Notes: a model not told the origin generated them from the letters alone. DNA of 64,000 bases from Patescibacteria group bacterium (GCA_041650915.1 JBAZKE010000005.1:11310-75309), one strand, 5' to 3'; shown: positions 11,793 to 35,529, numbered from the stretch's first letter. Program-made: numbers and translations.

Positions 11793-11830
11793 ATAAAAAT
11801 CCCCCACGAAGAAGCGAGGCTCCGCAGGGG
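11793..11830 (-). terminator. intrinsic terminator hairpin after the CHAP/CTD gene (copy 1 of a duplicated terminator)
   Basis: Minus strand: cccctgcggag-cctcgctt-cttcgtggggg followed by ATTTTTAT. An 11-bp stem with G-U wobbles. Nearly identical to 35530..35567. Confidence 0.6.
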
Positions 11831-11865: not shown

Positions 11866-14800
11866 CTACTTGAGCAGTACCATTTTTTTTGTTTGCACGG
11901 CGTCCCCCGCGCGGATGCGGTAAAAATAGATGCCTGATGCGTACCGGCCAGCGGCCCACGAGATTTCGTGCTGGCCAGCAGTCTGGTATTCGTCAACGAG
12001 CGTTGCTACCTTTTGTCCGAGGATGTTGTACACGGAGAGCTCGACCATGCACGCGGTCGGCAACTCATACACAACCGTCGTTACGGGGTTAAACGGATTC
12101 GGGTAGTTCTGCCGGATAACGAGTTCTTCGGGCAGGACGTCATCACCCAGCTTATACGCATAGTGCGGGATATCAAGCGGGATAATGCCGGCCTCAACGG
12201 TATCGCCCGCGTTGATAGCTGCGGCAATGTCACGAGCAAGGAGGTCGCACGGACTCGCGTTGCCGCTGATCCAGCAGTCGATGGGGCTCGCACGGATAAG
12301 CGAATCACAGTACGTAATCGCCTGGGAAACCGACGCTCCGTCAGCGCTCACGGAATCCGACAGCGAGAGCCGGTATGCCGCGGCGTTCAGCATCAGCGCG
12401 GCAAGCTGCTGCTGTGCCTGGGATTGGATCGTTACGTAGCAATACGGGCCGGTTCGTTTTGCCATGACCGCATAACGCTCGGCGTTTTTGACCTCGAATT
12501 CCCGATGGCACACGCGCCTGTTGAAGAGCCCTGCCAGCTGCCCGAGCCGAGCGGAGCATTCCGGTTCATCGCTGATCACGACGGACCGAATGGGATGCGC
12601 ACGGTTCCCGTTGAAGTGGCGTTTGATGCGGTCAGCGAACGCGCAGAGGCTGTCGACAGGCTCAACGCCGGACGAATCGCCGTACACGATCTCATTGAGT
12701 TCGTGCCGCCAGTAGCTGGACCGCTGCTGGTTCGGAACGATATCCAGCTGCGTCAGCGAAAATGCCACACTGGCGTCCGCGCCCTGCAATACGGATACCG
12801 CTGCGAGATCGGAATCGGCCGCATACCCCAGCGGCGGCAGTATTCCGACCGAGTACTCGCCCGTAAGCACGTGCGGCAGTTCAAACGATCCGCTCGCGTC
12901 GGTATGCGCCGTGTATTGGCACACGCCGAACGTATCGCACACGTCAACCGCAACGCCGCGAACGCCTGCCATCGCGTCGTCAACCACGGTTCCGGAAATG
13001 GAGCCGATCGGCGCTGATCCCGCGACGAGCGCGTACGGATACGCGTCATGCGGGATATCGATGGCCTCAACCCCAAACGTCCACTCGCCGGCTGCGTCCG
13101 GCACGAACTCCGCTGTTATCGGCGGCTGGCTGGACTGCCATTCGCCGAATACGGTCCCGTCAGGACGGTACGCCGTCAGCTTGAGCTCGCTGCCGAGCCA
13201 GTTGAGCAGCAGCCGCCAGGTCTCGTGGAAACTGTCAATTACGAAATCCCACAATGAAGTGTCGCCTTCATCTATGTAGCCTTCGACGCCGCCTTCCTGC
13301 GTATACGCATCCGGCAGCTGATCTCCAGTCTCCTCCAATAACATGGCAGCGTGGTAGAGCGCGGCGATATCTTCATCCGTCAGCGCCCGATCGTACAGGC
13401 GAACCTCATCAACCGTGCCCGGCAAAAACCCGTCGAAATTGCTGTATCGCCCGATACGAAGGTTCTTGCCATAATTCTGTATGGTTCCGCTCAGCGGGCA
13501 TGAGCCGATGAACTCCGCGTTAACGAATAGCTCTATGGCAGACCCGTCATACGTTCCCACCACGAAGTACCAATTCCCAGGCGTCCAAAAACCATTGTCA
13601 GTTCCCACAGAAGCGTGGGAGCCGGCTGTCACCGAGAAAAGGAACTTCGCGTAGTATTCGCCGTCGTACTGGTCGCCGCACGCTCCAAGGTGGTACTGGT
13701 AATACGGAAACGCGTGCCGCAGATACCCCTTGTCGAAAAGAGGATCGTTGCCCGTGCCCTGGAATGACACCGGCCGGTACCATGCCGCGAGCGTGAGAGC
13801 ATTCGGAGGATTGAGGCTGGCCGCATTGCCGAGATCGATATGGTCGTCAATGCCGTCGAAATCCAATGCCAGGCCGGATATCCCGTCAACCGGAGTAGCG
13901 CCGTATACGGTGCCGTCATTGCCATTCCCCGAATTATCGCCCGCATCCCCAGCATCGAAACTCCAGTAAGCGACCAGGCCGGCTGACAGCGGGTCTACCC
14001 GGATCTTTAGCGTCAGCCCTTCCCCGGAAAAATGCTCTCCCGAGTGCGGCCGGTACAGCGCCACGTACAGGTAGTAGTCACCCGGCGTAAAAGGAGCCTG
14101 AATCTGGAATGAATACAAACCCTGTCCGCCGGGATTAACCAATCCTTCGGGATCGCCTTCCGTAGAAACAATGGCTACACAATTGGGATCAATCCAGTCG
14201 TACGCCAATTCGGATGGCAATCCGTCACTCCACGGTTCAGCGCTTCCCGGACCGGTCACCGATTGCAGCTCCACATAGTGCGGGCTGTTCTCATCATTGG
14301 TCCAGTACGCCGTGCCGAGATTATTGAACGTAAACGACACATTCAGTACCTGCCCAGGAGCTACCGGATAATAGTCCAAGCCGGGTGGGTAGATGGGGGT
14401 TTGGGAGGACCAGCAGGCGTCGTAAGTACCACCATAGTCAGGATCCCGGAGCCAGCCTTGGGTAACATACGCACCACTACTACTAAATGATCCTACACTA
14501 TAGGGCGGGTTAGATGATAGAGAAAGCTGTTTCGGATCCGGCTCTATTTGACCATCGGTTCGATTCTGATCAATCATCAGCACATAGTCCGGCCCAACTT
14601 CCATTATGATTCCTACGTGACCAGCATTATCATGCTCCGGCGCAGGGCCAAAACAGATAATGTCGCCCGATTCCGGTGGAATAATGGACTCGCCATTTAC
14701 ATACTGATCAAGAGTGTCAGTACTCGCCCATGAATCGAAGGCATTTTTGGCCACTCCTCCACTGATGGGATTAAGTGGGTTTAATACCTCAAACTCATAG

Positions 14801-15033
14801 AAACGCTTCACATACTCGACACACTGATAAAAGCCGCAGCCTCCTCCAGTCCAATCACCATTGGAGTGGGCAGTAATTCCTCTGAACTCAGCGAGTGGAC
14901 AGCCATAGTTACCGGAAGCCCATTGCCCCTCCTGACCACAGTCTTCATCAAAGTAGATCTCAGGACAATCAGCAAACGATGGTGTGGAGAGTAAATTCCA
15001 TACCATGAGACACAAGAACATCACGTGTTTCAT
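11866..15033 (-). CDS. secreted multidomain protein: N-terminal CHAP peptidoglycan amidase/peptidase domain, LamG/concanavalin-like domain, carboxypeptidase-regulatory-like domain, C-terminal T9SS-type sorting domain
   Basis: 1055 aa. Signal peptide (MKHVMFLCLMVWNLLSTPSFA). CHAP region (CGFYQCVEYVKRFYEF ... HVGIIMEV). LamG-like (WYRPVSF...VDEVRLYDRALTDEDI). CTD NYPNPFNPVTTVVYELP...VYNILGQKV...SGIYFYRIRAGD...MVLLK. Confidence 0.8.
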   Translation of the reverse strand: MKHVMFLCLMVWNLLSTPSFADCPEIYFDEDCGQEGQWASGNYGCPLAEFRGITAHSNGDWTGGGCGFYQCVEYVKRFYEFEVLNPLNPISGGVAKNAFDSWASTDTLDQYVNGESIIPPESGDIICFGPAPEHDNAGHVGIIMEVGPDYVLMIDQNRTDGQIEPDPKQLSLSSNPPYSVGSFSSSGAYVTQGWLRDPDYGGTYDACWSSQTPIYPPGLDYYPVAPGQVLNVSFTFNNLGTAYWTNDENSPHYVELQSVTGPGSAEPWSDGLPSELAYDWIDPNCVAIVSTEGDPEGLVNPGGQGLYSFQIQAPFTPGDYYLYVALYRPHSGEHFSGEGLTLKIRVDPLSAGLVAYWSFDAGDAGDNSGNGNDGTVYGATPVDGISGLALDFDGIDDHIDLGNAASLNPPNALTLAAWYRPVSFQGTGNDPLFDKGYLRHAFPYYQYHLGACGDQYDGEYYAKFLFSVTAGSHASVGTDNGFWTPGNWYFVVGTYDGSAIELFVNAEFIGSCPLSGTIQNYGKNLRIGRYSNFDGFLPGTVDEVRLYDRALTDEDIAALYHAAMLLEETGDQLPDAYTQEGGVEGYIDEGDTSLWDFVIDSFHETWRLLLNWLGSELKLTAYRPDGTVFGEWQSSQPPITAEFVPDAAGEWTFGVEAIDIPHDAYPYALVAGSAPIGSISGTVVDDAMAGVRGVAVDVCDTFGVCQYTAHTDASGSFELPHVLTGEYSVGILPPLGYAADSDLAAVSVLQGADASVAFSLTQLDIVPNQQRSSYWRHELNEIVYGDSSGVEPVDSLCAFADRIKRHFNGNRAHPIRSVVISDEPECSARLGQLAGLFNRRVCHREFEVKNAERYAVMAKRTGPYCYVTIQSQAQQQLAALMLNAAAYRLSLSDSVSADGASVSQAITYCDSLIRASPIDCWISGNASPCDLLARDIAAAINAGDTVEAGIIPLDIPHYAYKLGDDVLPEELVIRQNYPNPFNPVTTVVYELPTACMVELSVYNILGQKVATLVDEYQTAGQHEISWAAGRYASGIYFYRIRAGDAVQTKKMVLLK

Positions 15034-15112
15034 TAGAAACCTCCTTAAGCAACTAGTTCAACAGTTACAGTTAATTGAATTGTCAATTTACTATTTTCCT
15101 CCTATGCTTTTT

Positions 15113-15820
15113 TTATGTTAGTTTAAGTGTTGAAATTATCATTTCTATAACATCAATTTCACTCGAAAGGTCTGTTGCGGCAAAGTTTTGTTCGTAGGTC
15201 GCGTTGTCCGATAGAGGATAAATGACCGAATACTCTGCGTATAACACCCTATCACCGACTTGTGGAAAAATTGTTGACTCATTTCCTAAATACCATGCTT
15301 TTATTTTACTATCAACGACAACAACGGTAGTAGGCACTTCACGTTCATGAATGGTTACTGGATCACCTGGCACATACTTTCCATTATATGTCACAAAAAA
15401 GTAAGTCCTACTGGTTAATAAATATGAATCATCAACCTTCTTGATACCTAATTCTAACTCTCGATCATTATTTTCACTTGAAAACCTCACAAATTTTGCA
15501 TCGCCTGATAGGTTTGGATTATCAATTAATTCAACATCCTCGACTGTCCACTCGGACGGGATTTTTATCGAGTATCCGTGCTCTTCATTCTCATACGTCA
15601 ACCAGTCTGAGGTATCGATGTCTGAAAGAGTGGCTGTATTTGTGTTCTCGTTTGAATTAGCATCGGTATTAATATTGGTCGCTGTATTCACATTTTCATT
15701 GGTGGCAACAATATTCGTAGTATTCGTATTCCCCTCATTATCCTGAAAAAACAGGAAATACCCGCCAGCCAGGATAATGGCGGCGATGAGGACGCTGACG
15801 ATAAGTGTTGTTTTTGACAT
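15113..15820 (-). CDS. membrane-anchored N/T-rich protein, paralog family member A (possible partner of the adjacent hydrolases)
   Basis: 235 aa. Starts MSKTTLIVSVLIAAIILAGGYFLFFQDNEGNTN, then an N/T-rich low-complexity linker, then DTSDWLTYENEEHGYSIKIPSEWTVEDVEL. Paralogous to 16705..17367 and 31881..32609, and more weakly to 35604..36266. Confidence 0.6.
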   Translation of the reverse strand: MSKTTLIVSVLIAAIILAGGYFLFFQDNEGNTNTTNIVATNENVNTATNINTDANSNENTNTATLSDIDTSDWLTYENEEHGYSIKIPSEWTVEDVELIDNPNLSGDAKFVRFSSENNDRELELGIKKVDDSYLLTSRTYFFVTYNGKYVPGDPVTIHEREVPTTVVVVDSKIKAWYLGNESTIFPQVGDRVLYAEYSVIYPLSDNATYEQNFAATDLSSEIDVIEMIISTLKLT

Positions 15821-15918
15821 GATCTTTTTTGGTTAGAGATTAAGTGTATGACATATATACAGTATATATGACCTATACCCAATTTCCAACTTCCTAACTA
15901 CCTTCTAAAAACTAACAA

Positions 15919-16608
15919 CTAACTACCAAACTTGAACGTAAACGACACATTCAGTACCTGCCCAGGAGCTACCGGATAATAGTCCAAGCCGGGTGGGTAG
16001 ATGGGGGTTTGGTCGGCGTAGGTGGCTTCGTAGAACTTGCCAGGAGTGTTTTGCACAATCCAGGCAATAGGATCAACCCAGCCGTTGTATGGAGGTGTAA
16101 CCGGTAACTCGAGTGCCCCATACGGATCGGGGGGCATGTCTCCACCAGGATGAACTCCAAAGTGTAAGTGAATCCCATATGACCACGGACCAACAATCGC
16201 AATCTCTTCACCAGCTTTAACCTCATCTCCTTCTCCCAAGCCACTTCTGACATGACCATAGACCGCAACAAACTCCGTCCCGTCTTGAAGGGTATGAAGG
16301 ATGAACAAGCCTACGTTATCATCTCCCCAGCCGCCATCACCGACATCCAGAATCTCGCCGTCTGCTATTGCATAGACGGGATCCCAAAGGTAGGTAGCGA
16401 TATCCCAGCCGATGTGATAGAAACCAGGAAAGTAGGTTCCATTAGGCGGGGGCTCCTCAAGCCACGCCGCATAGTCTCCGAGTTCACTGGTGCCAGTCGG
16501 ATAATAAAACCCGGTAGGCGTCTGCTCAAGCGTCTGTGCATTTACTATGATATTACCAAGCATCATAGTCAGCACAACAACAATTACAACCATTACTGCT
16601 TTCATCAT
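15919..16608 (-). CDS. secreted M23/LytM-family peptidoglycan endopeptidase
   Basis: 229 aa. Signal peptide. HIGWDIA...AIADGEI...GHV...GIHLHFG (HxxxD ... HxH M23 active-site pattern). The C-terminal 27 aa are identical to an internal segment of the 11866..15033 protein. Confidence 0.8.
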   Translation of the reverse strand: MMKAVMVVIVVVLTMMLGNIIVNAQTLEQTPTGFYYPTGTSELGDYAAWLEEPPPNGTYFPGFYHIGWDIATYLWDPVYAIADGEILDVGDGGWGDDNVGLFILHTLQDGTEFVAVYGHVRSGLGEGDEVKAGEEIAIVGPWSYGIHLHFGVHPGGDMPPDPYGALELPVTPPYNGWVDPIAWIVQNTPGKFYEATYADQTPIYPPGLDYYPVAPGQVLNVSFTFKFGS

Positions 16609-16704
16609 TTTCTCCTTTTTCTAGCAGTTTCTGATTATTCTGTATGTTATGTTTTCAATTTACTATTTTATTCCCTCCAGTTCTGATTTTAAAAAAGGTA
16701 TTTA

Positions 16705-17367
16705 TTATAGTAATTCAAATGTGCTGACAAACGCATCGTACAATTCTTCGCGTTCTGAAGTGAATACAGGTGCGAATTGACTCCCTGTTGCAATCTGGTA
16801 GTAATATGTTTCTCCAAGCAGAATAGAATTTGCACCAATCTTCCTTGTACCACTTTCCAACTGAGCAGTGGCATTATATCTCCATGCGTCTTTGTTGTTA
16901 ACAGAGATAGTTAAATATTCGTTTTTATCGTTAACAGAAAGAGGCACTCCACTATTTACTAACTCATTTAAAGTATTTGCACCCGCATTGTTGCTTGCTA
17001 ATATCCGAATGACCAGGTCACCTATCGAAAAATTAACAATATACCCCAAATCCTCGTCATCATTGATCCCACTAGTCAACTCTTGATAAGTCGCATCACT
17101 TGGATACTTCACAGAATACCCATACTCCTCGTTCTCATACGTCAGCCAGTCTGAGGTATCAATGTCTGAGGTAAGGGCGTTGACATTAGTATTTTCATTG
17201 TCATTAGTGGCTGTGTTGACATTGGTGGCATTCATATTCTGATTAGCAGCAACAGTATTGGCGTTATTGGTATTATCACCCTCATTATCCTGAAAAAACA
17301 GGAAATACCCGCCAGCCAGGATAATGGCGGCGATGAGGATACTGACGAGAATGGTTGGTTTTGACAT
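16705..17367 (-). CDS. membrane-anchored N/T-rich protein, paralog family member B
   Basis: 220 aa. MSKPTILVSILIAAIILAGGYFLFFQDNEGDNTNN... DTSDWLTYENEEYGYSVKYPSD. The first 30 aa are almost identical to 15113..15820. Confidence 0.6.
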   Translation of the reverse strand: MSKPTILVSILIAAIILAGGYFLFFQDNEGDNTNNANTVAANQNMNATNVNTATNDNENTNVNALTSDIDTSDWLTYENEEYGYSVKYPSDATYQELTSGINDDEDLGYIVNFSIGDLVIRILASNNAGANTLNELVNSGVPLSVNDKNEYLTISVNNKDAWRYNATAQLESGTRKIGANSILLGETYYYQIATGSQFAPVFTSEREELYDAFVSTFELL

Positions 17368-17626: not shown

Positions 17627-20506
17627 TTAACTCCTTTTTTCCTTTTCAGCGGTTGTGCTCTCCCCGCTGTGCAGCGGAATCAGAACGTTGAACGTTGATC
17701 CCTTTCCAATGCCATCGGACTCAACCCAAATATTGCCTCCGTGCGCTTCGGCGAGCCGCCGCGCAACGTACAGCCCGAGGCCGGACCCGTCGGGGTTGAC
17801 CTGCGCGATGCCGTACCCGCGCACGAACTTCGTGAACAGCTTCTTCGCCTCTTCCGGCTCTATGCCGCGGCCGGTATCCTTAACCGCAAAATGCATATAC
17901 TCGCCGTGCGGTTCGGCGATGAGCGTAACGGACCCCTCGTCAGTGTACTTGATCGCGTTGTCGGTGAAGTTGAGCACGATATCGCCGAGCTTGTCCTTAT
18001 CCGCAAACACAAGCGGAAGCTTTTTCTTCGGTTTGTGAAAAATCAGCTTGAGCTTTTTCTCGTCCGCCGCCTGCTGCACCATCGACATGACCTTGTCGAC
18101 AACCTCCTCAATGTGGACTGGCGTACGGTTGAGTTCGAGCCGCCCTGACTCGATCTTGGACACATTGAGGAACAGGTTGATGATGCGGATCATGCGCTGC
18201 GACTCCTCGAGCAATCCCACGAGTATCTTGTGCTGCTCTTTCGGCACCTTGCCGAAATCACCCTGCAGGATCATTGACAAATAGCCCATAATGCCCGTCA
18301 TCGGCGTCCGGAGCTGGTGTGACGTGATCGATACGAACTCGGATTTAGCCTGGTCGAGCTGCTGCAAATGCTTGTTCGCCTCGCCGAGGTCTTTATTTGA
18401 CCGTTCGAGCTGGCGGTACAGCTCGATGTTCCGCGATACGATGCCGGACTGGTTGGCAAGCGCTTTCATGATAGAGATGTCGGTCGGCTTGATCTGGCCG
18501 GGCTCGTGGGCGAGCAGATAGACAATAGCGCCAACGATTCCCTCTTCCGAATAGATCGGGACGGAAATCACCGTCCGCACCTTGAGCAGCTTCTGCATTT
18601 TCTGTACGATTTCCTCCGGAACGGCTGGCGAGAGAAAGTCGGTAAACTCCGTGCCGATCTGCACCTGGCCTCCCTTAACGGTTTTCACCGTCCTGCTCTT
18701 GCTCGTCGTGTAGTCGCCCCAATACTCGCTCATCGGCTTTGGCAGCAGCCCGAGGGCTTGCTTGATTGGCTGGCTTTGCGTCACCGCATCGGCAAATAGC
18801 CGATGCCGGTCTTTCCCGAGGAAGAGCACGATGCCGCCAATGTACCCGAGCTCGGTCGCGATGCTGTCCGCTATCGTCTGTGTCACTTTATGGAAATCGA
18901 GCGTGCGGGTGATGAGGTTCGTGACGTTCTGCAGCGCTGACAGGAACTTATTCCGCTCCTGGAGCTGCAGATTGGTATTGCGCAGGTCTTCCGTGGAGAT
19001 CGCAACCTCTTTTTTAAGCCGCTCGGTGAACTGCTGGGCTTCTTCATATAACCGCGACTTCTCGAGCGCGGAAGCGAGCTGCGGCCCGATCAGCTTAAGC
19101 AAGTTCAAATCTTCGGAGCCGTACGGATCGCCGGACAGCTTTTGCCCGAGCACCATAATGGCGGTGAGTTCGCTTCCCGTCGTGATCGGCGCGACGATCG
19201 TGGCATCGAGGCCATCGAGCTCTTTTTTCGACTCTTCGAGGCCTTTCCGATCCGCTTCATGCTGCGTATCTTCGATCTTCCGCTCGAGCCCCTCAAGCAC
19301 GACTACCTCCTGCGATGCGCGCATGTACTTCACGAGCGCGCTGTTGTGGCTGATGCGCTGTTTATAATCATGCTGGTCACGTTCCGCGAGTTCAGCCAAA
19401 ATTGCATCGTCAATCTTTTCACCAGTTCCCGGATCGATCCTTCCCCTGCGTTTATAAAAAGCTCCACCCGATGCTCCGGTCAGATAAATGCTCGTATTCT
19501 TTACCTTGAGGTCTTTTTCCAGTTTTCTTGAAAGTGAAAATAAGAGTATATCCAAATCAATTTCGCGATTGATGATTTCGGAAAGATCAGTTAAGAGTTT
19601 TTGGTAGTCAACACGTGCTTTAAAGAAAAGGGTGTCAGTCGCCGCGCCTATCCATTTTTTTAAAGGATCTAATATTAAGACAATAAAAATTGAAACGACC
19701 AGTGCAATTAATAATCTTAGAGGAGTGTTCAATACTGCTTGAGGCAAACTGATTGTCATAACTACCACTGTCGTGGCAATAATAAATACTAGAACAGAAT
19801 AGGTAATAGTGCGTAGCACTACAAAACGAATATCTAATAATCGATGCCTAACAATAGCATAAGACATGAAACCAATCATAAAAACAGAAAAGGATGGACC
19901 GATATTACCAAACTCCACGCTAAAAAATCGAGGCAATATTAAATTTACACTAAAAGCAGAAATGATAAAGAGTATTATTCCCAGAAAAGTATACTTCAAT
20001 TGCAATTTACTCACACCAGATGACTTTCGAAATTTCTTGACAAATAAATACAAGATATATATTACATAGATTGCAGCATATAAAATATAATAATTAACCC
20101 CTGGTCCAAATACATCTCTTGGATCCAAACCTTTAATTACAGCGACACTCGAATCAAGTTTAATTAGAAACGGACTTGTGAAAATCGTGCCTAAAAAAAA
20201 GATTCCTCCCAGAATCAAAATATAAAAGAATACTTTATTTTCTTGCCTATCTCGCCTAGGAAAATTCTTTAAAAAAATTAAAAAAACAATCAAGGCAATA
20301 GTACTAAAAAGGTAAGAAAACTTTACCCAAAGAACATGTTCACCTGATAATCTGGTGATTAGTACCGAACAATTCCACGTGGCAATAAATAACGTTGTCA
20401 ATGCAAACAAACGATTGATAACTGCCCGTTTCCGAGAATAAACAAGGTAGCCAAAAAAAATACTCAATAACGTGGTCAACCCTAAAATGATATTTTCTGG
20501 ATTCAT
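17627..20506 (-). CDS. sensor histidine kinase: N-terminal multi-TM sensor domain, GAF domains, HisKA, HATPase_c
   Basis: 959 aa. About 8 TM helices. H-box SHQLRTPMTGIMGY. G-boxes DTGRGIEPE...GSGLGL. Starts 3 bp after the upstream methyltransferase stop. Confidence 0.85.
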   Translation of the reverse strand: MNPENIILGLTTLLSIFFGYLVYSRKRAVINRLFALTTLFIATWNCSVLITRLSGEHVLWVKFSYLFSTIALIVFLIFLKNFPRRDRQENKVFFYILILGGIFFLGTIFTSPFLIKLDSSVAVIKGLDPRDVFGPGVNYYILYAAIYVIYILYLFVKKFRKSSGVSKLQLKYTFLGIILFIISAFSVNLILPRFFSVEFGNIGPSFSVFMIGFMSYAIVRHRLLDIRFVVLRTITYSVLVFIIATTVVVMTISLPQAVLNTPLRLLIALVVSIFIVLILDPLKKWIGAATDTLFFKARVDYQKLLTDLSEIINREIDLDILLFSLSRKLEKDLKVKNTSIYLTGASGGAFYKRRGRIDPGTGEKIDDAILAELAERDQHDYKQRISHNSALVKYMRASQEVVVLEGLERKIEDTQHEADRKGLEESKKELDGLDATIVAPITTGSELTAIMVLGQKLSGDPYGSEDLNLLKLIGPQLASALEKSRLYEEAQQFTERLKKEVAISTEDLRNTNLQLQERNKFLSALQNVTNLITRTLDFHKVTQTIADSIATELGYIGGIVLFLGKDRHRLFADAVTQSQPIKQALGLLPKPMSEYWGDYTTSKSRTVKTVKGGQVQIGTEFTDFLSPAVPEEIVQKMQKLLKVRTVISVPIYSEEGIVGAIVYLLAHEPGQIKPTDISIMKALANQSGIVSRNIELYRQLERSNKDLGEANKHLQQLDQAKSEFVSITSHQLRTPMTGIMGYLSMILQGDFGKVPKEQHKILVGLLEESQRMIRIINLFLNVSKIESGRLELNRTPVHIEEVVDKVMSMVQQAADEKKLKLIFHKPKKKLPLVFADKDKLGDIVLNFTDNAIKYTDEGSVTLIAEPHGEYMHFAVKDTGRGIEPEEAKKLFTKFVRGYGIAQVNPDGSGLGLYVARRLAEAHGGNIWVESDGIGKGSTFNVLIPLHSGESTTAEKEKRS

Positions 20507-20508
20507 AT

Positions 20509-21219
20509 TTACTCAGCTCTTGCTATAATCAGCTCAAACTGGTCTGAATAGGTGAGGCGGCAATCAATTATATGGAAATTGGTTTTTTCTAAAAGGCACC
20601 TAATATCATTTTGAAAAAAATATCTTAATCGTAAAGAAAAATACCGTCGCTTAATGTTGACGAGAAAGGAAGAAATAATACGAGGATTTCTAATCATCTT
20701 GTTGAGTAACCCGTGCCGTAAATCACTAAAAAATATTTTCAATCTATTCGATCCCTTTCTTGGATAAGTTAAAATAAGTAGTCCCTCTTTTCTTTTCAAT
20801 ATCCGATTAAATTCTCTTAATAACATTTCCGGCGATTGAACATCCCAAATAACGCTCAAGCATACCACGATACTAAAATAATTCTTTTTGAATGGTGTTG
20901 ATGAATCTAAATCGATATTTTGTAAGTGGACCCGCCTACCAAAAAATTTTTTCTCCAAATAACTAATAATCTCAGCTTGGTTATCAATGCCCCAAACTTC
21001 AACATAAGGGAACAAACTTTTAAATCGATCTAGGAAATTTCCAGTCCCAGTGCCCGCGTCAAGTAATCTACTTGCTCTTCTCTTTAAAATGTCACCTCTA
21101 AACTCTCCAATAATCTCGATAATGTCCGACATCATTCGATTATACGAAGGGCTGTTTTGGACAATTAAATCATAGTCGTCTAAATAGCTCGACCAAAAAT
21201 CTTTTTTTTCACTCTTCAC
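20509..21219 (-). CDS. SAM-dependent methyltransferase (class I)
   Basis: 236 aa. The LDAGTGTGNFL glycine-rich motif I. Overlaps the upstream ligase gene by 11 bp. Confidence 0.7.
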   Translation of the reverse strand: MKSEKKDFWSSYLDDYDLIVQNSPSYNRMMSDIIEIIGEFRGDILKRRASRLLDAGTGTGNFLDRFKSLFPYVEVWGIDNQAEIISYLEKKFFGRRVHLQNIDLDSSTPFKKNYFSIVVCLSVIWDVQSPEMLLREFNRILKRKEGLLILTYPRKGSNRLKIFFSDLRHGLLNKMIRNPRIISSFLVNIKRRYFSLRLRYFFQNDIRCLLEKTNFHIIDCRLTYSDQFELIIARAE

Positions 21220-22705
21220 GATTATTTACATACTTATTTTTAATCCCTGAGGACATATTCCCACGAATAAAATCTATAATAATCGGGGTATAATTTATGT
21301 GAGTTACTGCATCTGCAAACTCCCGATTATTTTCCTGGATCTCCTTAGTAATTATTTTTCTAAAATCTTCACGCAAAGATTCCGATCCCTTAATATCCTT
21401 TTTTAATTCTATCAAAATTGAAATTATGGGTTCTTGGTTTTGATTCTCCTTTTTTTCAACAATAAATCTTCCTGTATGATGACGCGCGATGTGTTTGTTG
21501 CTCAAGGCTCCTTTAATATTTTCAATGTATACATTTGCCCCCCTAAAAGTCACCCCTCCGTCACTTCGACCAGCAATCAACAAAAACGGAAACTTCATCA
21601 TCAATTGCAAAGAACCCTCGTAGGTTCCGATAATTTTCTCAATATCGATATCAAACCTCAATAACTCCGTCTTCATTCGCTGAAAAGTTATTACGTCGCC
21701 TAAATCATGGATGTTGTATCTCACCAATGGCGATATCGACCTAGTACTTGCGATGACTTCGTTATTTACAGCCTCAGCAAAAAAATTAATCGGATTATAC
21801 TGAAATAGCATTGGTGTCATATTCGAAAATCTAGAGAAAACCTCGTTTGCCACGGAGTGGTCAGCAAAACAAGCTCTACGAATCTTTATCGAAAGTGGTG
21901 TTTCAAAACCAGTACCTCGACCAAATTCCGTAACGCCATAACTCGATTGAATTCTTTGAATAATATCCCTCTCGTCACTAATTTCTAATAATTGGGCGAG
22001 ATAATCACGAAGTCCCTCAGGAAAGCCTTCTCCTCCGGTATTAATGTATACTTTTATTTTTTTATGAAACCCCAAACGATTCACCTTTTCAATTAAATTT
22101 TTTATAAAGGGGGGGTAACCAGTAATAATAACCTGATCGTAATAAGAAGAGAAAACCTCGAGAATACTAATCACTGTATTTATATCAGGGCCTGGGTTTA
22201 CACTCAAAAGAGAATATCTTTTCTTATACCCAATCTCTTTAATTAAGCGAGACACTTTCTCACCGCTCGGCCAGATACCGAATGCATAGCAATTAATAAA
22301 AAGTGTAGAACGCCTATCTACGTTACCAATAGTACGTAATAAAAACTCAAATTGTTTTCTAGTTTGATAATCTTCCTCCGGAGATCTTAAAAAAAATGTT
22401 GTTGCGCCAGAATAGCCAGAACTTCCTTCTAAAGAATGTGCCCGTTTTATAGCACTCTTAATAGATCTATCGAAAATATTAAACCTACTCAGGTAACTTG
22501 TCTTATCAATAATGGGCAATGCTCGAAATTCCTGGAAGGAATTAATTTTCTTAACCGACGCTCCTTTCTCTTTCAAAAAAATACAATAAGCCGAAACTTC
22601 ATTTATTGTATCATTATAAAGCTTAATAGCATTCTTTATACTATCTCGATGCATATTCCTTATTTTTCTCCTTGCAATAGGAAATAGTAAAGCCTGAAAA
22701 TCCAT
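21209..22705 (-). CDS. adenylate-forming enzyme of the PaaK/coenzyme F390 synthetase-like family
   Basis: 498 aa. GSSGYSGATTFF (P-loop-like), SSYGVTEFG (YGxTE), IAGRSDGGVTFRGANVY (cf. PaaK GRxDDMIIxRGVNVFP). Confidence 0.65.
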   Translation of the reverse strand: MDFQALLFPIARRKIRNMHRDSIKNAIKLYNDTINEVSAYCIFLKEKGASVKKINSFQEFRALPIIDKTSYLSRFNIFDRSIKSAIKRAHSLEGSSGYSGATTFFLRSPEEDYQTRKQFEFLLRTIGNVDRRSTLFINCYAFGIWPSGEKVSRLIKEIGYKKRYSLLSVNPGPDINTVISILEVFSSYYDQVIITGYPPFIKNLIEKVNRLGFHKKIKVYINTGGEGFPEGLRDYLAQLLEISDERDIIQRIQSSYGVTEFGRGTGFETPLSIKIRRACFADHSVANEVFSRFSNMTPMLFQYNPINFFAEAVNNEVIASTRSISPLVRYNIHDLGDVITFQRMKTELLRFDIDIEKIIGTYEGSLQLMMKFPFLLIAGRSDGGVTFRGANVYIENIKGALSNKHIARHHTGRFIVEKKENQNQEPIISILIELKKDIKGSESLREDFRKIITKEIQENNREFADAVTHINYTPIIIDFIRGNMSSGIKNKYVNNREE

Positions 22706-22711
22706 ATTAAG

Positions 22712-23410
22712 TCATAATATTGTTATATTCTTGTGATCATGTCGTAAAAAATGATAAAAAAAGGGATTCAATGTTTTTAACTTTTCATTACTATCGGTAA
22801 TATCATTAATCAAAGTGACAGAAAGACTCTTATCATCGACTCCGTAATATTTGTATGGAAAACTTATAGCACGAAAGCCAAACTGCTTATATCGCTCTCC
22901 ATGCTCTACAGAACATGTAATAACAAAATGAGTAATCCCGTTGTTAATTGCATATATAATTGCTGACTTTATTAAACCCAACGAAACAATTTTATTTCGA
23001 AAATCCTTTTTCACAACAAAACGTGATAACTCTGCATACCTCGCATTATTAGGCATATATTGCTTCACCGTATAATGCTCTTCTGTCAGAACTTGCTTTT
23101 GGTGATTTGGTATGATCCGAATTCCTCCAATTACTTGACTGTGTTGATTTGTGACTACAATTGACGTTGCATACACATCGTATTGGTCTGTCTCCATCTC
23201 GGAAGGATAATCTTCCTTCGGTAAAAATCCCTTCTCTAGACAATAAACTTGATACCTTAATCGGAATAAATATTTTTGCTCATCTTCTTTTGCGATGTGA
23301 AAAGAATACTGTCTCATCCTATAATTAACCACTGGCAGTGAGAATATTAATAGAATTTTCCTTTCAAACCATTTTTGCACATTCATATCACAATTTATAT
23401 CATACCACAA
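22712..23410 (-). CDS. LuxI/FeeM-like N-acyltransferase (autoinducer synthase / N-acyl amino acid synthase fold, GNAT-related)
   Basis: Contains the ...ARYAELSRFVV... motif characteristic of this family, and the N-terminal LFRLRYQVYCLEKGF pattern. The true start is more likely ATG 23317 (MRQYSFHIAKEDEQ..., about 201 aa) than the track's 23410. Confidence 0.5.
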   Translation of the reverse strand: MWYDINCDMNVQKWFERKILLIFSLPVVNYRMRQYSFHIAKEDEQKYLFRLRYQVYCLEKGFLPKEDYPSEMETDQYDVYATSIVVTNQHSQVIGGIRIIPNHQKQVLTEEHYTVKQYMPNNARYAELSRFVVKKDFRNKIVSLGLIKSAIIYAINNGITHFVITCSVEHGERYKQFGFRAISFPYKYYGVDDKSLSVTLINDITDSNEKLKTLNPFFYHFLRHDHKNITIL

Positions 23411-23682: not shown

Positions 23683-24042
23683 TTATTTTGATTTTTCCAG
23701 AATTGCCCCAAAAATCTTCATGAGCTCGGTTGATTCCTGGATGAGCTTTTTTCTACTTTCAAATTCTCTCTGGTCAGGTTCAGTAAGTTCTAACCAATAT
23801 CTCCTCTCCTTTGCTTCCTTGCGGCAGATTTTAACGCGCATTATAAAATCCTTCTTGCTTAACGCTTCGTTTGCTTCGATGTAGTTTGCACCGACAGAAC
23901 CTGCTGAACGAACTAACTGTTTTCCAAACTCATAGTGGCTCACGCTCTTTGGTAAGGTTTTGCAGTATCGAGATACACTTCTGGTATAGTTAAGCGTTCT
24001 ATCCTCCAAATCAAACCGTTTTGAATTTTGAATTTCCGTCAT
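23683..24042 (-). CDS. four-helix-bundle protein (23S rRNA intervening-sequence protein family)
   Basis: 119 aa. LVRSAGSVGANYIEANEA.SKKDF..K..IC.KEAKE...WL matches the family signature. Paralog of 26170..26547. Confidence 0.75.
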   Translation of the reverse strand: MTEIQNSKRFDLEDRTLNYTRSVSRYCKTLPKSVSHYEFGKQLVRSAGSVGANYIEANEALSKKDFIMRVKICRKEAKERRYWLELTEPDQREFESRKKLIQESTELMKIFGAILEKSK

Positions 24043-24080: not shown

Positions 24081-25520
24081 TTAGTGCCTCGTACCAATTC
24101 GTTCCACCGCTTGTTTATACAGCAACGCATTCGCTATTGCATTCGTCATTTGGAACTGAAGTCTGGATAAATACTCCACGTTGTCGGAGGTATATGCCTC
24201 GTTCTTTTTTTTGCGTCCGAACGTGAAAGCGCCGATGAGCTCCCCCTTTTCTCCGATCGGCAACACCATGCTGACCCCCAGCTTTTGTAACGTCGCCTCC
24301 GCATCGAGGAGGAGCTGCTTCTCGCCATTTTCCTCCTCATCAGCCCGGTACGGAATCTCTTCCGTTATCAATACTCCCAGGTGCTCGCGTAAATACTGGA
24401 ATACGGAATCGGTAGGCTCCAGCTCGATGCGCTTATCCTCTTTGTAGTAATTTTCTAGTTTGCCATTCCGTTTATTGAGCCAGATAAATTGAATGTCCTG
24501 CACTTCCAGGAAATCAGCTAACAAAAGTATTACCTTTTTAATCAGCTGGTCAAACTGGACCGAAGACGAGAGTACGATCCGCAGCTTATGCGCCTCTTCC
24601 TGGGCTGATTTTTTCCGTGCGTAGAACACCCTATCAATCATTGTCACTAAAACTCTCCGCAGTGGTTCAACGCTGGTTACAATTATCAATACCAGAATAA
24701 TCGTAGCAGTCTGTTCTTGCCAAGCGTACTGTTCGATCAGTAATCGCTGGAATATTATAAGAAGGTAAATGTATAAAAAAAGTATTATCAATAATGCAAT
24801 AAAATGTACAAACCCTTTGCGGAAAGCGAGTTTGATATCAAGCAAACGGTAACGAAGAATTGCATATGACATCCCAGCCGTCATAAAAATTGTACATAGA
24901 GGTCCGAACAATGATGGCCGTACATCCAGAGAACTAATAAAAAGAGGCCAAATTAAATTTGTGAACACTCCCCCAATAGCACTGATGGCAAAACCAGCAA
25001 TAACATACCTCAATTTTAGCTTTTCAATGGGAAGCGCACTTTTGTACGTTTGAAAAAAATAATAAAATCCGATAAAAAAATAGAGCAGGATATACATGCA
25101 ATAAAATGGGTACCAGGAACCGTAAACGGAACCATTTAAGCCGCCTATAGCATTTTGAACGGACTCTTTAAATACTAGACTTGTTAAACTAAGGCAGCAA
25201 AAAAATATTGGCAGTACTGACAATATAAAATTCTTTTTTATAGGAACTTTTTTCTCCTTTGGAAAATGTAAAACAAAATAAATAAATAAGGGTACAATCA
25301 ACGAAGCAGATACAAATGCTGCTCTACCAGTTATTAATGCCAATTGGCAATCGCTACTAATATTTGAATAATAGCTGCTTCCCACCCAAGCACTCACAAC
25401 AAACGATAAAAAGAAAAAATAAATATTGACCTTCCGCCTCACTCCTTTTAGCAGAACAAACAATCCGAGCGAGATATTCGCCACAACCACAAAAATTGTG
25501 ATAATGCCAAGTAACGTCAT
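24081..25520 (-). CDS. membrane sensor module (multi-TM + GAF) without kinase output; paralog of the histidine-kinase N-terminal half
   Basis: 479 aa. About 8 TM helices ending in ILRYRLLDIKLAFRKG (cf. IVRHRLLDIRFVVLRT in the kinase), then a GAF-like domain. No H-box or ATPase. Confidence 0.65.
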   Translation of the reverse strand: MTLLGIITIFVVVANISLGLFVLLKGVRRKVNIYFFFLSFVVSAWVGSSYYSNISSDCQLALITGRAAFVSASLIVPLFIYFVLHFPKEKKVPIKKNFILSVLPIFFCCLSLTSLVFKESVQNAIGGLNGSVYGSWYPFYCMYILLYFFIGFYYFFQTYKSALPIEKLKLRYVIAGFAISAIGGVFTNLIWPLFISSLDVRPSLFGPLCTIFMTAGMSYAILRYRLLDIKLAFRKGFVHFIALLIILFLYIYLLIIFQRLLIEQYAWQEQTATIILVLIIVTSVEPLRRVLVTMIDRVFYARKKSAQEEAHKLRIVLSSSVQFDQLIKKVILLLADFLEVQDIQFIWLNKRNGKLENYYKEDKRIELEPTDSVFQYLREHLGVLITEEIPYRADEEENGEKQLLLDAEATLQKLGVSMVLPIGEKGELIGAFTFGRKKKNEAYTSDNVEYLSRLQFQMTNAIANALLYKQAVERIGTRH

Positions 25521-26169: not shown

Positions 26170-26547
26170 CTAATTAACGACTCCTCGATTCGTTGAATGC
26201 ACTATTGCATTGAAAATTAAATTCAGTTCCTTTGCTTCTTGCAGTAGTGGCTGTACTTTTTCTTCTTGAACAGAATCAGCTGCTACAACCATTCGTAACC
26301 AATGTTTTGTTTCACGCGCCTCTTTCTTACAGATTCCGATTTTGTGCTTAAAATCCTTCCTCGATTCAGCATCGTCTGCCTCGCAGTAATTTGCGCCAAC
26401 GCTTGTCGCTGACCGTACGAGTTGAGTAATGAGAGGCCGGGTTACGGAACTCTCCGGGATCTGCCGTGCGAATCCAATAACGGCTCGGCCGAACTTCGCA
26501 GTACGTTCTTCTAAATCAAACTTCTTTGTCATTCCGTCATTGGTCAT
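26170..26547 (-). CDS. four-helix-bundle protein (23S rRNA IVS protein family), paralog
   Basis: 125 aa. LVRSATSVGANYCEADDAESRKDF.HKIGICKKEARETKHWL. Confidence 0.75.
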   Translation of the reverse strand: MTNDGMTKKFDLEERTAKFGRAVIGFARQIPESSVTRPLITQLVRSATSVGANYCEADDAESRKDFKHKIGICKKEARETKHWLRMVVAADSVQEEKVQPLLQEAKELNLIFNAIVHSTNRGVVN

Positions 26548-27582: not shown

Positions 27583-27744
27583 TTCTGTTGGTCATTCTGG
27601 GTCCCGCTTTTCGGGACGAAGAATCTTTATGGCGTAATTGAATGACTTTCTTAAATTATTTCACGGTAGGTTTCGAAACTCCCAGCTTACTCCTTCAGAT
27701 GGCTCCTTCCCTGCCTATGGGCAGGCCCACGCGATGTCGGAAAA

Positions 27745-28010
27745 AAGCATGCCATGGCGAGGAGGAATCCCCTTCTCCCCTCCGCCACTCTGAGCCCACC
27801 GAAGCGCCATCGCGGAAGGCAGGAAAAGAATCCCCTGGCCGGAGGCTTCGAGATCGCCACGTCGCCTTCGGCTCCTTGCGATGACCCAGGGAAAAAGCAT
27901 GTCGTTGCGAGAAAGAATCCCCTTCTCCCCTCTGTCACTCTGACGACGGCGTAAGCCGGAGAAAGAGTCCCCTGGCCGGAGGCCAGGAGATACTTCGCTT
28001 TCGCTCAGTA
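27745..28010. repeat. array of degenerate ~150-bp palindromic repeat units immediately 3' of GIY-YIG gene 1
   Basis: The unit ccctggccggaggcttcgagatcgccacgtcgccttcggctccttgcgatgacccagggaaaaagcatgtc (27831..27902) recurs at 28990..29060 and partially at 29200..29262. The sub-motifs gaatccccttctcccctc.g.cactctga and gtc(a/g)t(t/g)gcgag also recur. Confidence 0.6.
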
Positions 28011-28313
28011 TGACTCGGGGAATAAGTCTTTGCTCAAGTCACGCCACGTGGGATTCAATCCTTTAATGAGCATCACCTTCTTCTTCCGTAACCATCCTTT
28101 GATCTGTTTTTCTCTCGCGATGGCTATTCGTATGTCATCTATTACCTCATAGTAGACAAGCTTGTTTGCATTGTACTTCGCCGTAAAACATTTGTTTACC
28201 TTATCACGGTGCTCATGAACTCGGCGTTGCAAATTATTCGTTACACCAGTATAAAGAACCCTGTTGAATTTATTCGTCATGATATACACGCAGTACTGCC
28301 GTTCCCGTCGCAT
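28005..28313 (-). CDS. GIY-YIG nuclease family protein (UPF0213-like), copy 1
   Basis: Internal start at ATG 28313 (MRRERQYCVYIMTNKFNRVLYTGVTNNLQRRVHEH), the GIY-YIG motif pair, about 103 aa. The track ORF, extended to 28382, would overlap the neighbouring gene. Confidence 0.8.
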   Translation of the reverse strand: MRRERQYCVYIMTNKFNRVLYTGVTNNLQRRVHEHRDKVNKCFTAKYNANKLVYYEVIDDIRIAIAREKQIKGWLRKKKVMLIKGLNPTWRDLSKDLFPESY

Positions 28314-28320
28314 AGGATTT

Positions 28321-28953
28321 TTATACGGCATCAAGGTTCTTCGCCCGCCGCGTCCGCCCAGAACGGCAAACGTAGGCCACAATTACTGCAATAATAACGG
28401 TACTGAATGCCCCGATGGTATTGAGAAGCATATCATTGCCCGTATCTGGCCCGTCGCCAAAACGGTTGCCACCAGTAATCAAATCCTCAATGTACTCTTC
28501 CAGTTCATAAAAAACTCCGAGCGTGGACGCGATCGTGAATGCAAACAAGCCCACAAGCCATGGCGACAGCGCGATCTTTCCGCTTTTTTTCAGGAGCCAC
28601 AGCGCGTTGAATGACAGGAGCGCTGCCATTGCCGTGCCGCACAAATGCCCTGCCTGGTCATACCAGTCAAATTTGTTGTACCAGTGCATCGTATCCCCGA
28701 GAGCGTCAAATGATACGCTGAAAAGCGCTCCGGCGAATACGAACCACGGCAGCGGATTGCCAGTAGACTTTTTCACCCGGTATGAAACAAACTCAACCGC
28801 AAGCCACACGAAAAACGCCGTAACGAACAGCCCGAGCCAGGTGAAGTCGAGCGTGAAATCCAGCACCCCAGCGTAGTTAAGCAATTCAAACGATATCCAG
28901 CCCGCAAATCCGAGCCGCATGGCATTGGTGAGCACTTTGTTTGTCTTTTCCAT
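28321..28953 (-). CDS. hypothetical integral membrane protein (about 6 TM)
   Basis: 210-aa hydrophobic ORF. Its last ~15 codons overlie the conserved leader of the GIY-YIG module. Confidence 0.55.
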   Translation of the reverse strand: MEKTNKVLTNAMRLGFAGWISFELLNYAGVLDFTLDFTWLGLFVTAFFVWLAVEFVSYRVKKSTGNPLPWFVFAGALFSVSFDALGDTMHWYNKFDWYDQAGHLCGTAMAALLSFNALWLLKKSGKIALSPWLVGLFAFTIASTLGVFYELEEYIEDLITGGNRFGDGPDTGNDMLLNTIGAFSTVIIAVIVAYVCRSGRTRRAKNLDAV

Positions 28954-28974
28954 AGTCGATATGTAATTCTATTT

Positions 28975-29290
28975 ATTTGTCACTCTGACCCTGGCCGGAG
29001 GCTTCGAGATCGCCACGTCGCCTTCGGCTCCTTGCGATGACCCAGGGAAAAAGCATGTCATGGCGAGCGAAGCGAATGGTCCCCTGCTCCCTCTGTTACT
29101 CTGAATGAAGAGAAGAATCCCATGACCGATGGTCTGATGATCACCACGTCCCTCCTCCTTCTGTCACTCTGACGACGGTGCAAGCCGGAGGAAGAATCCC
29201 CTGGCCGGAGGCTTCGAGATCGCCACGCCCTTCACTCCGTTCGGGCTCGCAATGACAAAGAAAAACGCAGGTCATTGCGAGGAGGGACGA
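28975..29290. repeat. second array of the same palindromic repeat family, 3' of GIY-YIG gene 2, including an 11-bp perfect hairpin ctcgcaatgac/gtcattgcgag
   Basis: 28990..29060 is almost identical to 27831..27902. 29247..29280 forms a hairpin, ctcgcaatgac-N14-gtcattgcgag. Confidence 0.6.
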
Positions 29291-29300
29291 CGAAGCAATC

Positions 29301-29600
29301 TCATTGGTACCAATCTACCGCTAGGTCCTTCCACTGTTTATTATCCTTTTCAATTAGCTGAACTTTCTTACGTCTCGAGCCTGCTTTCAGTTGCTTCTCC
29401 CGTGCGATTGCGTCCATCGGATTATCAAACACTTCGTAATAAACTAACTTATTAATATTATACTTGCTCGTAAAACCTTTGACTGCTTTTATTTTGTGTT
29501 GGTACACGCGGCCTTCTAAATGACCCGTGACCCCTATATACAAAACCGTATTCGTCTTATTCGTCATAATGTACACGCAGTACTGCCTTTCCTGACGCAT
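29301..29600 (-). CDS. GIY-YIG nuclease family protein (UPF0213-like), copy 2
   Basis: 99 aa. MRQERQYCVYIMTNKTNTVLYIGVTGHLEGRVYQHK. The upstream leader (29612..29660) resembles the leader of copy 1. Confidence 0.8.
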   Translation of the reverse strand: MRQERQYCVYIMTNKTNTVLYIGVTGHLEGRVYQHKIKAVKGFTSKYNINKLVYYEVFDNPMDAIAREKQLKAGSRRKKVQLIEKDNKQWKDLAVDWYQ

Positions 29601-31880: not shown

Positions 31881-32609
31881 ATGCAAGACCAGCCAAACGA
31901 GCCAAAGGAAATGTCAAAAACAACCGCCTGGATTATCCTCGGCGCTATCGTTGTAGTACTCGCAGCGGGAGGATACTACTTCCTGGCGCAGGAAAATGGG
32001 AATACAAACAGTTCAAATGCCGTCACGGTTACGAATACAATGGCGAATGAGAACGTAAATGGATCGATGAATGCAAATACTGAGTTGAATACGAATACAA
32101 CTTCCAATACCAACGAGGTTACGAATACAAATACCGAAGTTGATACCTCAGATTGGCTGACCTACACCAACAGCGAGTATGGCTATACCATGCAGTATCC
32201 CAGTGATTGGACGGTGGAAGAGGTTAAGCTGTCCGAAGATCCAGATAGCCGAGGTAGGATACCACCGTTAAGAGCTGTTAAATTTCGTAACGAGAATAAA
32301 AGGTTCTTATTAGTAATGTATTTGAAACCAATTACTGAACTCGGAACTCCATATATGAGCGCATCTCCTGCATGGGATCAAAGTGAATTCAAAATACAGG
32401 TTGGCCAGTACACCATATCGGCAATTAAAGAAACAAGCGAAGGAAGAATTCAAACTATTTATATCCCTGGACCATCGCAATTGGTACAGCTGGGTAGTTA
32501 CGATTTTGCAGCCTATCTCATTGACTACTCCGATAATGACGCAAGGGATTTATCAAAGAACAATGAGTACTATGTAATACTCGAAATCCTCAAAACCCTC
32601 AACATATAA
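31881..32609 (+). CDS. membrane-anchored N/T-rich protein, paralog family member C
   Basis: 242 aa. A TM helix (WIILGAIVVVLAAGGYYFLAQENGNTN), an N/T-rich linker, then DTSDWLTYTNSEYGYTMQYPSDWTVEEVKL. Confidence 0.6.
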   Translation: MQDQPNEPKEMSKTTAWIILGAIVVVLAAGGYYFLAQENGNTNSSNAVTVTNTMANENVNGSMNANTELNTNTTSNTNEVTNTNTEVDTSDWLTYTNSEYGYTMQYPSDWTVEEVKLSEDPDSRGRIPPLRAVKFRNENKRFLLVMYLKPITELGTPYMSASPAWDQSEFKIQVGQYTISAIKETSEGRIQTIYIPGPSQLVQLGSYDFAAYLIDYSDNDARDLSKNNEYYVILEILKTLNI

Positions 32610-32684
32610 AACAAAAGGAGGATAATAAAAAAACGTATTTTGACAACTAGAACACTGTAACAATCAAACTGAAGGAGGTCTGAA

Positions 32685-35495: not shown

Positions 35496-35529
35496 CACCG
35501 TCTTTTCCAAGAAAACCTGTCATCCAAAT

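Follow-up and report, generated by a model that had tools for sequence, protein, structure and literature searches.

The system that most resembles the one described here in function is Tse3-Tsi3 of Pseudomonas aeruginosa, in which a muramidase effector delivered by a type VI secretion system (T6SS) is opposed by a periplasmic immunity protein. The genes that we compare with it lie in a 64,000-nt stretch of Patescibacterial DNA (the window, hereafter), which encodes three secreted peptidoglycan hydrolases, namely an M23 metallo-endopeptidase and two CHAP-domain proteins, CHAP-A and CHAP-B, each preceded by the gene of a membrane-anchored partner (par2, par1 and par3, respectively). The two systems have in common a fold and a target-enzyme class, and they differ in several respects. 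Namely, Tsi3 is soluble or lipid-anchored, resides in the periplasm of a diderm and counters an enzyme that arrives through the T6SS, whereas the window partners are held by a transmembrane (TM) helix, carry a long tether and bear no sequence similarity to Tsi3. What is more, Tse3 is a T6SS-delivered muramidase, while the window enzymes are Sec-secreted M23 and CHAP proteins of a lineage without a known T6SS, for which neutralisation is only proposed. Among the window genes scanned, no dedicated delivery system (T6SS, type VII secretion system (T7SS) or similar) was seen, and the hydrolases carry ordinary signal peptides. The likeness of Tsi3 to Mog1 and PsbP, which matters for what follows, was already remarked upon in the paper on its structure (PMC3792639).

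Several other described systems share single features with the window pairs. TplEi/Tli4 and PA3488, which confer Tli4_C-domain immunity to the phospholipases TplE and PldA, are, unlike the window partners, lipase-neutralising, two-domain proteins from Proteobacterial T6SS loci. Chaperones of the Eag/DUF1795 type (SciW, PA0094/EagT6) reside in the cytoplasm without a TM anchor and bind TM helices of effectors, while the window partners are predicted to face outward, with an N-terminal TM helix in all copies. Compared with PsbP_2 (PF18933) and cyanobacterial CyanoP, the window branch adds the TM anchor, a tether rich in Asn and Thr, an extension of the first hairpin that bears a DTSDW motif, and a genetic link to M23 and CHAP enzymes; it has no role in photosynthesis. 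The topology of the window partners is that of the colicin M immunity protein Cmi and of TipC, which acts against the T7SS lipid II phosphatase TelC: an N-terminal TM anchor, a protective domain outside the cytoplasmic membrane and a gene beside that of the toxin. As far as we are aware, the folds of these two proteins are unrelated to that of the partner. Finally, LpoB, NlpI with MepS, and EnvC with its amidases are membrane-attached proteins with a long disordered linker that control a wall enzyme, as the window partners would if they served as tethers, but they are housekeeping regulators with other folds and with neither diversification nor arrays. The module is not a new category; it is a known fold and family in a new pairing, and no description of a PsbP-like/M23-CHAP module was found in the full-text literature searched, which covers few subscription-journal papers.

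A conserved two-gene unit of anchored partner and secreted hydrolase

All seven open reading frames (ORFs) on which an earlier, sequence-only reading of the window was built were found at identical coordinates. In that reading, two CHAP proteins and one M23 peptidase, all with signal peptides, each adjoin a member of a four-copy paralog family. The enzymes fully match this description, with Pfam and NCBIfam scores above cut-off: the CHAP domain scores 35.9 bits in CHAP-A (Pfam cut-off 26), next to a Laminin_G_3 domain at 83 bits, and 47 bits in CHAP-B, next to five to six FG-GAP repeats, and the M23 domain scores 47.2 bits (cut-off 28.7). The catalytic residues are in place, namely the Cys in QCVEYV and SNCVWW and the His in AGHVG and YGHVA for the CHAP domains, as read in the sequence, and HIGWD (HxxxD) and HLH (HxH) for M23. 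Hydrophobic leaders, read by eye and not with a predictor, begin all three proteins and end in SFA/D, VNA/Q or IMA/D. Judged by these motifs, CHAP-A, M23 and CHAP-B are intact signal-peptide-bearing peptidoglycan hydrolases and are predicted to be active. The paralog family fared less evenly. Namely, par1, par2 and par3 each lie on the same strand as, and 75-96 nt upstream of, their own hydrolase, so that all three CHAP/M23 genes of the window have an upstream partner gene, while par4 is not paired. On the minus strand the order is par2, M23, par1 and CHAP-A, with gaps of 96, 98 and 79 nt, and no terminator-like site was seen on this strand between the four genes, that is, before the hairpin that follows CHAP-A. 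This hairpin recurs after CHAP-B (35516-35565; 50 nt, 96% identical), which on the plus strand follows par3 after a gap of 75 nt.

Is this arrangement particular to the window? To answer this question, one genome per GTDB species was scanned for the peptide motif of the partner only, blind to neighbouring genes, which gave 80 loci in 68 assemblies; such sampling is confined to one branch of the wider family, that with DTSDW, and ORF calling in the loci was mechanical. By Pfam, the next same-strand ORF encodes M23 in 32 and CHAP in 6 cases, 38 of 65 altogether, while neither is among the 25 most frequent of the 66 families found in upstream ORFs, five of which are PsbP_2. Locally built hidden Markov models (HMMs), which do not reach the sensitivity of Pfam (CHAP-A escaped the model seeded with CHAP-B, and par4 that of the family), recognised 109 family genes, whose immediate downstream neighbour is M23 in 35 cases, CHAP in 8, another family member in 15 and some other gene in 32; nothing follows in 5 cases, and in 14 the contig ends first. 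By the same models, a hydrolase gene lies immediately downstream of 43 of the 90 assessable family genes, is reached in 50 of 95 assessable cases if one walks through tandem arrays, and lies upstream in only 3 of 85. Seen from the side of the enzymes, 43 of the 50 M23/CHAP genes in the surveyed loci are directly preceded by a family gene, and the median gap between partner and hydrolase is 104 nt. The difference between downstream and upstream counts led us to reject chance adjacency: partner and hydrolase adjoin far beyond chance, and a hydrolase with its anchored partner is a real, conserved, polar two-gene unit. The expectation that the family adjoins CHAP or M23 genes in other genomes is thereby borne out.

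The hydrolases of the surveyed loci resemble those of the window in other ways as well. Canonical catalytic motifs are present in 32 of 44 related M23 proteins, the rest keeping HxH with a variant first motif, and an N-terminal hydrophobic leader is found in 45 of 46 hydrolases. Among six homologues of the partner on long contigs, four precede CHAP or M23 genes of quite different architecture: P0019 is followed by a CHAP protein of about 1,400 amino acids, P0059 by a CHAP-dockerin protein of 776 amino acids, P0016 by an M23 protein, and P0015 (in locus L004) by an orthologue of CHAP-B. The other two, P0017 and P0040, are mutual orthologues and precede hrcA. Clusters of several pairs like that of the window recur in L019, L015 and L076, and comparison with L004, a related genome, shows the par3/CHAP-B pair inverted relative to the dcw cluster, which indicates that the pair has moved as a unit. 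Three M23 homologues have contexts that add little on pairing. Namely, P0074 follows a product that is not PsbP-like and is very rich in Ala, Gly and Arg, which suggests that it comes from a different, high-GC lineage; P0077 has no co-directional upstream gene; and P0076 is preceded by a product of 298 amino acids.

Among the organisms named in the locus labels are Kerfeld-, Moran-, Magasanik-, Uhr-, Falkow-, Gottesman- and Ryanbacteria, Paceibacteria and Saccharibacteria. Of the 80 loci, some 30, all third-party annotation records of metagenome-assembled genomes, bear the unconfirmed labels Gammaproteobacteria, Bdellovibrionales, Coxiellaceae, archaeon or Ignavibacteriaceae, and one of them is a complete chromosome of 915 kb. 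It may be that labels from outside the candidate phyla radiation stand in for Patescibacteria, or else that the family extends to further lineages with small genomes or a predatory life.

Fold and family of the partner

Three of the four window copies share the features ascribed to the whole set in the sequence-only reading, that is, a TM helix, a spacer rich in Asn and Thr, and the motif DTSDWLTYxNxEYGYxxxYPSD; par4 lacks both motif and spacer. It is 26% identical to par1 and was matched to PsbP_2 with E 0.004 over profile positions 45-182 of 184, and since it is convergent with CHAP-B and stands behind murF, we regard it as a distant PsbP_2-like relative and not as a member of a pair. Across the family the motif takes the near-invariant form (I/V)DTSDW(L)TYxNxxYGYxxxYPxxW and lies on the first beta-hairpin of the domain. 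A TM helix precedes the domain in 96 of 103 family members, and the tether, a low-complexity stretch enriched in Asn, Thr and Glu, measures 40 residues in the median. A fifth copy, the partial P0027, was among the relatives found and is not encoded in the window. The window itself is taken from a 79-kb contig of a Patescibacteria metagenome-assembled genome, in which the locus tags WC505_06460, WC505_06470 and WC505_06550 occur.

The family had been put forward as apparently uncharacterised, and as far as its classification is concerned this no longer holds. A homologue search with par1 alone gave two matches, while a query with an alignment (profile) gave 69 relatives. When 68 homologues were scanned singly, 53 of them matched PF18933 at E <= 0.01 (best E 2.2e-9), and several are already annotated as PF18933 or named 'PsbP-related protein' at NCBI. 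All four window copies resemble PsbP_2 only weakly, at 16.2-19.2 bits (E 1e-3 to 1e-2), which is under the gathering score of 27 bits. An exhaustive profile search extended the family to 2,296 cluster representatives at E <= 1e-3. We regard the partner family as a divergent, TM-anchored Patescibacterial branch of the known, functionally uncharacterised PsbP_2 domain family. In many relatives the domain is present two to five times in tandem, P0082 being among the multi-domain cases, and one protein of 3,046 amino acids has 18 matched stretches; for this reason the wider family is more than a set of single-domain partners.

Structure prediction leads to the same superfamily. Namely, alignment-based AlphaFold2 models of par1 and par2, with a mean predicted local distance difference test (pLDDT) score of 79.4 and 81.6 and with most 10-residue blocks of the domain part above 82, consist of a helix at the N-terminus, then a disordered tether, then an alpha/beta sandwich, and structure searches assign both to the Mog1/PsbP superfamily (Foldseek match to CyanoP, E 9e-6). 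The partner domain has the predicted alpha-beta-alpha sandwich of PsbP and Mog1, and the sequence profile of the family, compared with the PDB, reaches CyanoP (E 0.009) and DcrB (E 0.04). This predicted fold is that of the T6SS immunity proteins Tsi3, TplEi/Tli4 and PA3488. At the level of sequence, no described immunity family was matched by the partner family in searches of Pfam, NCBIfam and the PDB, and NCBIfam gave no informative model, only weak matches that span the anchor, tether and first hairpin and concern the Rv3446c family associated with the T7SS. The partner has a predicted fold known to serve as an immunity protein, and a gene directly beside that of its putative cognate enzyme, conserved across genomes, and in these searches it showed no sequence homology to a described immunity family.

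The fold also bears on whether the pairs could be a lysis cassette derived from a phage, with a spanin- or holin-like membrane protein next to an endolysin. The M23 enzyme does match endolysin PHROGs, and par3 has weak matches to Rz-like spanins (E 0.004), confined to the TM and tether region. Against this, a search of 2.9 million IMG/VR contigs found no relatives, and Pfam scans of neighbour genes gave no phage-structural families; the hydrolases have signal peptides of their own and large adhesin-like domains; and the partner domain has the PsbP fold and is not a coiled coil. We consider such an origin extremely improbable and, with no relatives in IMG/VR and only marginal spanin-like matches over TM and tether, reject it.

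Diversification and possible roles of the partner

Apart from its motif, the partner domain is hypervariable: once the 30 motif residues are taken out, BLAST sorts 127 domains into about 90 clusters. When the window is compared with L004, par3 and its orthologue are 40% identical, as compared with 75% for the N-terminal 400 residues of CHAP, 75% for the penicillin-binding protein PBP, 76% for LexA and 83% for MraZ. Two or more family genes, in tandem arrays or in multi-pair clusters, are present in 21 of the 80 loci, and the tandem arrays resemble arrays of immunity genes. Fusions to M23 or CHAP domains are absent from all 128 family ORFs. Pairs with similar partners share the type of hydrolase in 14 of 14 cases, which is no proof of specificity, since most of these pairs are orthologues or duplicate contigs.

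This diversification has to be set against the view that the partner is simply a co-expressed binding protein of the envelope which makes no contact with the enzyme and captures a small ligand or wall fragment, for example muropeptides that the hydrolase sets free, for scavenging, like lipoproteins of the LpqN/DcrB type. If the ligand were conserved, one would expect neither a hypervariable body of the domain nor the strict upstream polarity and the layout of one partner per hydrolase in multi-pair clusters. We judge this explanation to be quite unlikely.

Our favoured reading, which we hold tentatively and at somewhat less than even confidence, is that the tethered domain is a cognate binder, probably an inhibitor or immunity-like, that restrains the hydrolase at the surface of its producer. 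The product of the first gene is a bitopic protein with an N-terminal TM helix, a disordered tether of about 40 residues rich in Asn, Thr and Glu, and an extracytoplasmic domain of the Mog1/PsbP fold (a divergent PF18933), and that of the second gene, about 100 nt downstream behind a promoter-like block of its own, a Sec-exported M23 or CHAP enzyme with intact catalytic motifs. The variable face of the tethered domain would bind the cognate hydrolase on its arrival outside the producer's membrane, and binding would keep the enzyme inactive or off the producer's own wall, as a form of self-protection or latency comparable to the neutralisation of Tse3 by Tsi3. Any enzyme that is set free or slips away would act elsewhere, most plausibly on the wall of a host or prey of this epibiotic lineage. 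What speaks for such restraint is the precedent of the fold in three immunity proteins, the diversification of the partner, the tandem arrays together with orphan copies, the lack of fusions, the upstream position of the partner gene and the extracytoplasmic location that both proteins share. Taken part by part, physical binding of the partner to the hydrolase seems to us probable, while inhibition of the hydrolase is a suggestion that could readily fail, and a host or prey wall is the most plausible target. The architecture, fold, conserved polar pairing, diversification, arrays and lack of fusions are established here. In this light, the resemblance to effector-immunity pairs that the sequence-only reading had pointed out is strengthened by the recurrent pairing and by a fold used in T6SS immunity; that said, a tether or activator would fit much of the same evidence.

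Namely, the main rival to restraint is that a flexibly tethered PsbP-fold protein positions or activates the hydrolase, as a scaffold, for remodelling of the cell's own wall, for division or for an attack that depends on contact. M23 enzymes with a partner are often short (200-280 amino acids) and devoid of any recognisable wall-binding domain, and the length and low complexity of the tether would suit such a role. The invariant aromatic and acidic motif, common to the partners of two unrelated enzyme classes, could bind a constant component of the wall while the variable part binds the enzyme, and gene order and co-directionality suit any obligate partner. We regard this alternative as unlikely.

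The inhibitor reading has weaknesses. The Mog1/PsbP fold has many roles other than immunity, as in PsbP, LpqN, DcrB, Apa and the Eag chaperones. Since one family with an invariant motif pairs with two structurally unrelated classes of enzyme, the common ligand could be the wall and not the enzyme. Many relatives, as described above, are tandem multi-domain proteins. The catalytic region of the enzyme is well conserved while the partner diverges, and this is not the classic race in which both sides change. Known secreted bacteriolysins of monoderms protect their producer by modification of the wall and not by an inhibitor. Furthermore, a hydrolase neighbour is lacking for about 40-45% of the family; a wide occurrence of the family without such neighbours had been named in advance as grounds for giving up the proposal, and it is found in part. 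Finally, both the partner and catalytic domains are acidic (median isoelectric point 4.6 and 5.1), so there is no charge complementarity, although this is uninformative.

One can go a step further and ask whether the pairs form a diversifying effector/immunity-like system across many Patescibacteria, in which the M23 and CHAP enzymes would be contact weapons or feeding tools, the PsbP-fold proteins would provide cognate self-protection, the DTSDW hairpin would be a common docking element for the wall or for some unknown machine, and specificity for the enzyme would reside in the hypervariable body. In this broad form we find the idea doubtful, if attractive.

Features around the pairs, and what the module may mean

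The features of the window that concern the pairs are collected in Table 1. The start of par3 is possibly the methionine of MSKTT at 31911, as in its relative P0004. The three spacers between partner and hydrolase genes share, in an alignment, the block AAAATAGTAAATTGAc/aAA ... ACTGTAAC ... GGAGG, which is like a promoter with a ribosome-binding site, and a promoter-like match is found at 16693-16665, in the par2-M23 spacer. Because of this shared TTGA(A/C)A-like block with GGAG, each hydrolase may also have its own promoter, apart from that of the partner.

Table 1. Positions of the paired genes and associated features in the window
Feature	Position	Strand	Remarks
par2, membrane-tethered partner of predicted PsbP fold	16705-17367	-	first of cluster, upstream of M23; TM 5-24, tether ~25-65, predicted Mog1/PsbP domain 70-220
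M23 metallo-endopeptidase, secreted, 229 aa	15919-16608	-	PF01551, 47.2 bits; HxxxD and HxH intact
par1, tethered partner of predicted PsbP fold	15113-15820	-	upstream of CHAP-A; TM 3-24, disordered 35-62, domain 74-230
CHAP-A, secreted, 1055 aa	11866-15033	-	CHAP amidase/peptidase, Ig-like, Laminin_G_3, CarboxypepD_reg-like, Por_Secre_tail
Terminator-like hairpin closing the par2-M23-par1-CHAP-A unit	11802-11819	-	inverted repeat
par3, tethered partner of predicted PsbP fold	31881-32609	+	upstream of CHAP-B
CHAP-B, secreted, 936 aa	32685-35495	+	CHAP, FG-GAP beta-propeller repeats, Por_Secre_tail
par4, distant PsbP_2-like anchored protein	35604-36266	-	no DTSDW motif; convergent with CHAP-B, downstream of murF
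Partner-hydrolase intergenic block	16609-16704	-	TTGA(A/C)A-like hexamer and GGAG ribosome-binding site; similar at 15034-15112 and 32610-32684
HisKA_7TM-GAF histidine kinase	17627-20506	-	weakly associated, possible regulator; 259 nt upstream of par2

DNA repeat comparison shows that the 5' 104 nt of par1 and par2 are 91% identical and the 3' 183 nt of CHAP-A and CHAP-B 90% identical. In addition, the M23 gene stops 30 residues into the Ig-like domain that follows CHAP in CHAP-A, with 101 nt (15932-16032 versus 14324-14424) 92% identical, and since the relative P0071 keeps the same short length, this end looks like the product of recombination between hydrolase genes and not like an assembly error. 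Read at the level of DNA, these repeats point to recent exchange among the pair genes of the window.

The C-terminal domains of CHAP-A and CHAP-B are by sequence of the kind that sorts proteins to the type IX secretion system (T9SS; TIGR04183/PF18962), as had been claimed for two of the proteins: Por_Secre_tail scores 35.6 bits in CHAP-A (Pfam cut-off 27) and 39 bits in CHAP-B, and TIGR04183 45 and 44.7 bits, respectively (NCBIfam cut-off 23). The domains are real in this sense, but T9SS sorting should not be inferred from them and a sorting function is doubtful, given that we know of no outer membrane or T9SS in Patescibacteria; within the 64-kb window no T9SS genes were seen. A third carrier of Por_Secre_tail is encoded at 41590-43467 (-), which makes three such secreted proteins in 64 kb, and the domain also occurs in 4 of 65 proteins at the hydrolase position of other loci.

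Other features lie nearby. Three HisKA_7TM proteins are encoded within 14 kb, all on the minus strand, of which the one listed in Table 1 is a full GAF-HisKA-HATPase kinase and the other two (24081-25520 and 29666-31135) are without kinase domains. In the GTDB survey a HisKA_7TM gene lies no more than 6 kb from a family gene in 11 of the 80 loci, and such a gene stands directly upstream of P0019 in L001 and L002, with a truncated equivalent in L003. Directly downstream of the histidine kinase is an island of low GC content (20509-23410 (-), 0.34 versus about 0.5 for the window) with genes for a methyltransferase dependent on S-adenosylmethionine, a protein of 498 amino acids that matches nothing in Pfam, and an N-acyl amino acid synthase like FeeM (GNAT, similar to autoinducer synthases); it may be a horizontally acquired module for signalling lipids. 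Further on, region 27739-29220 and the genes at 28005-28382, 29301-29600, 23683-24042 and 26170-26547 comprise two GIY-YIG nuclease genes and two genes for a '23S rRNA intervening sequence protein', a four-helix bundle. Both nuclease genes are flanked by direct repeats of 55-80 nt, 81-97% identical, and these genes may be small mobile or selfish elements. Finally, 54636-62186 (+) encodes a giant predicted surface protein of 2,516 amino acids, adhesin-like, which contains SpaA/SpaA_2 prealbumin-like domains and CARDB besides seven DUF11 repeats.

How epibiotic Patescibacteria breach the wall of their host and protect their own is largely obscure, and the module described here offers a widespread and easily cloned candidate pair. 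In particular, a short M23 or CHAP domain and an ectodomain of about 150 residues are directly testable together, which is of interest both for epibiosis and for the control of wall hydrolases. The pairing also gives a first functional context to a branch of PsbP_2, a family with about 2,300 cluster representatives. If the partner is indeed an inhibitor, this would be the fourth independent case in which the Mog1/PsbP fold neutralises a secreted enzyme, and if, as in the broader and more doubtful form of the idea, the pairs make up a diversifying effector/immunity-like system, they would include the first immunity family to be reported from this lineage and would be an analogue of the T6SS Tse/Tsi pairs that is independent of a secretion system.

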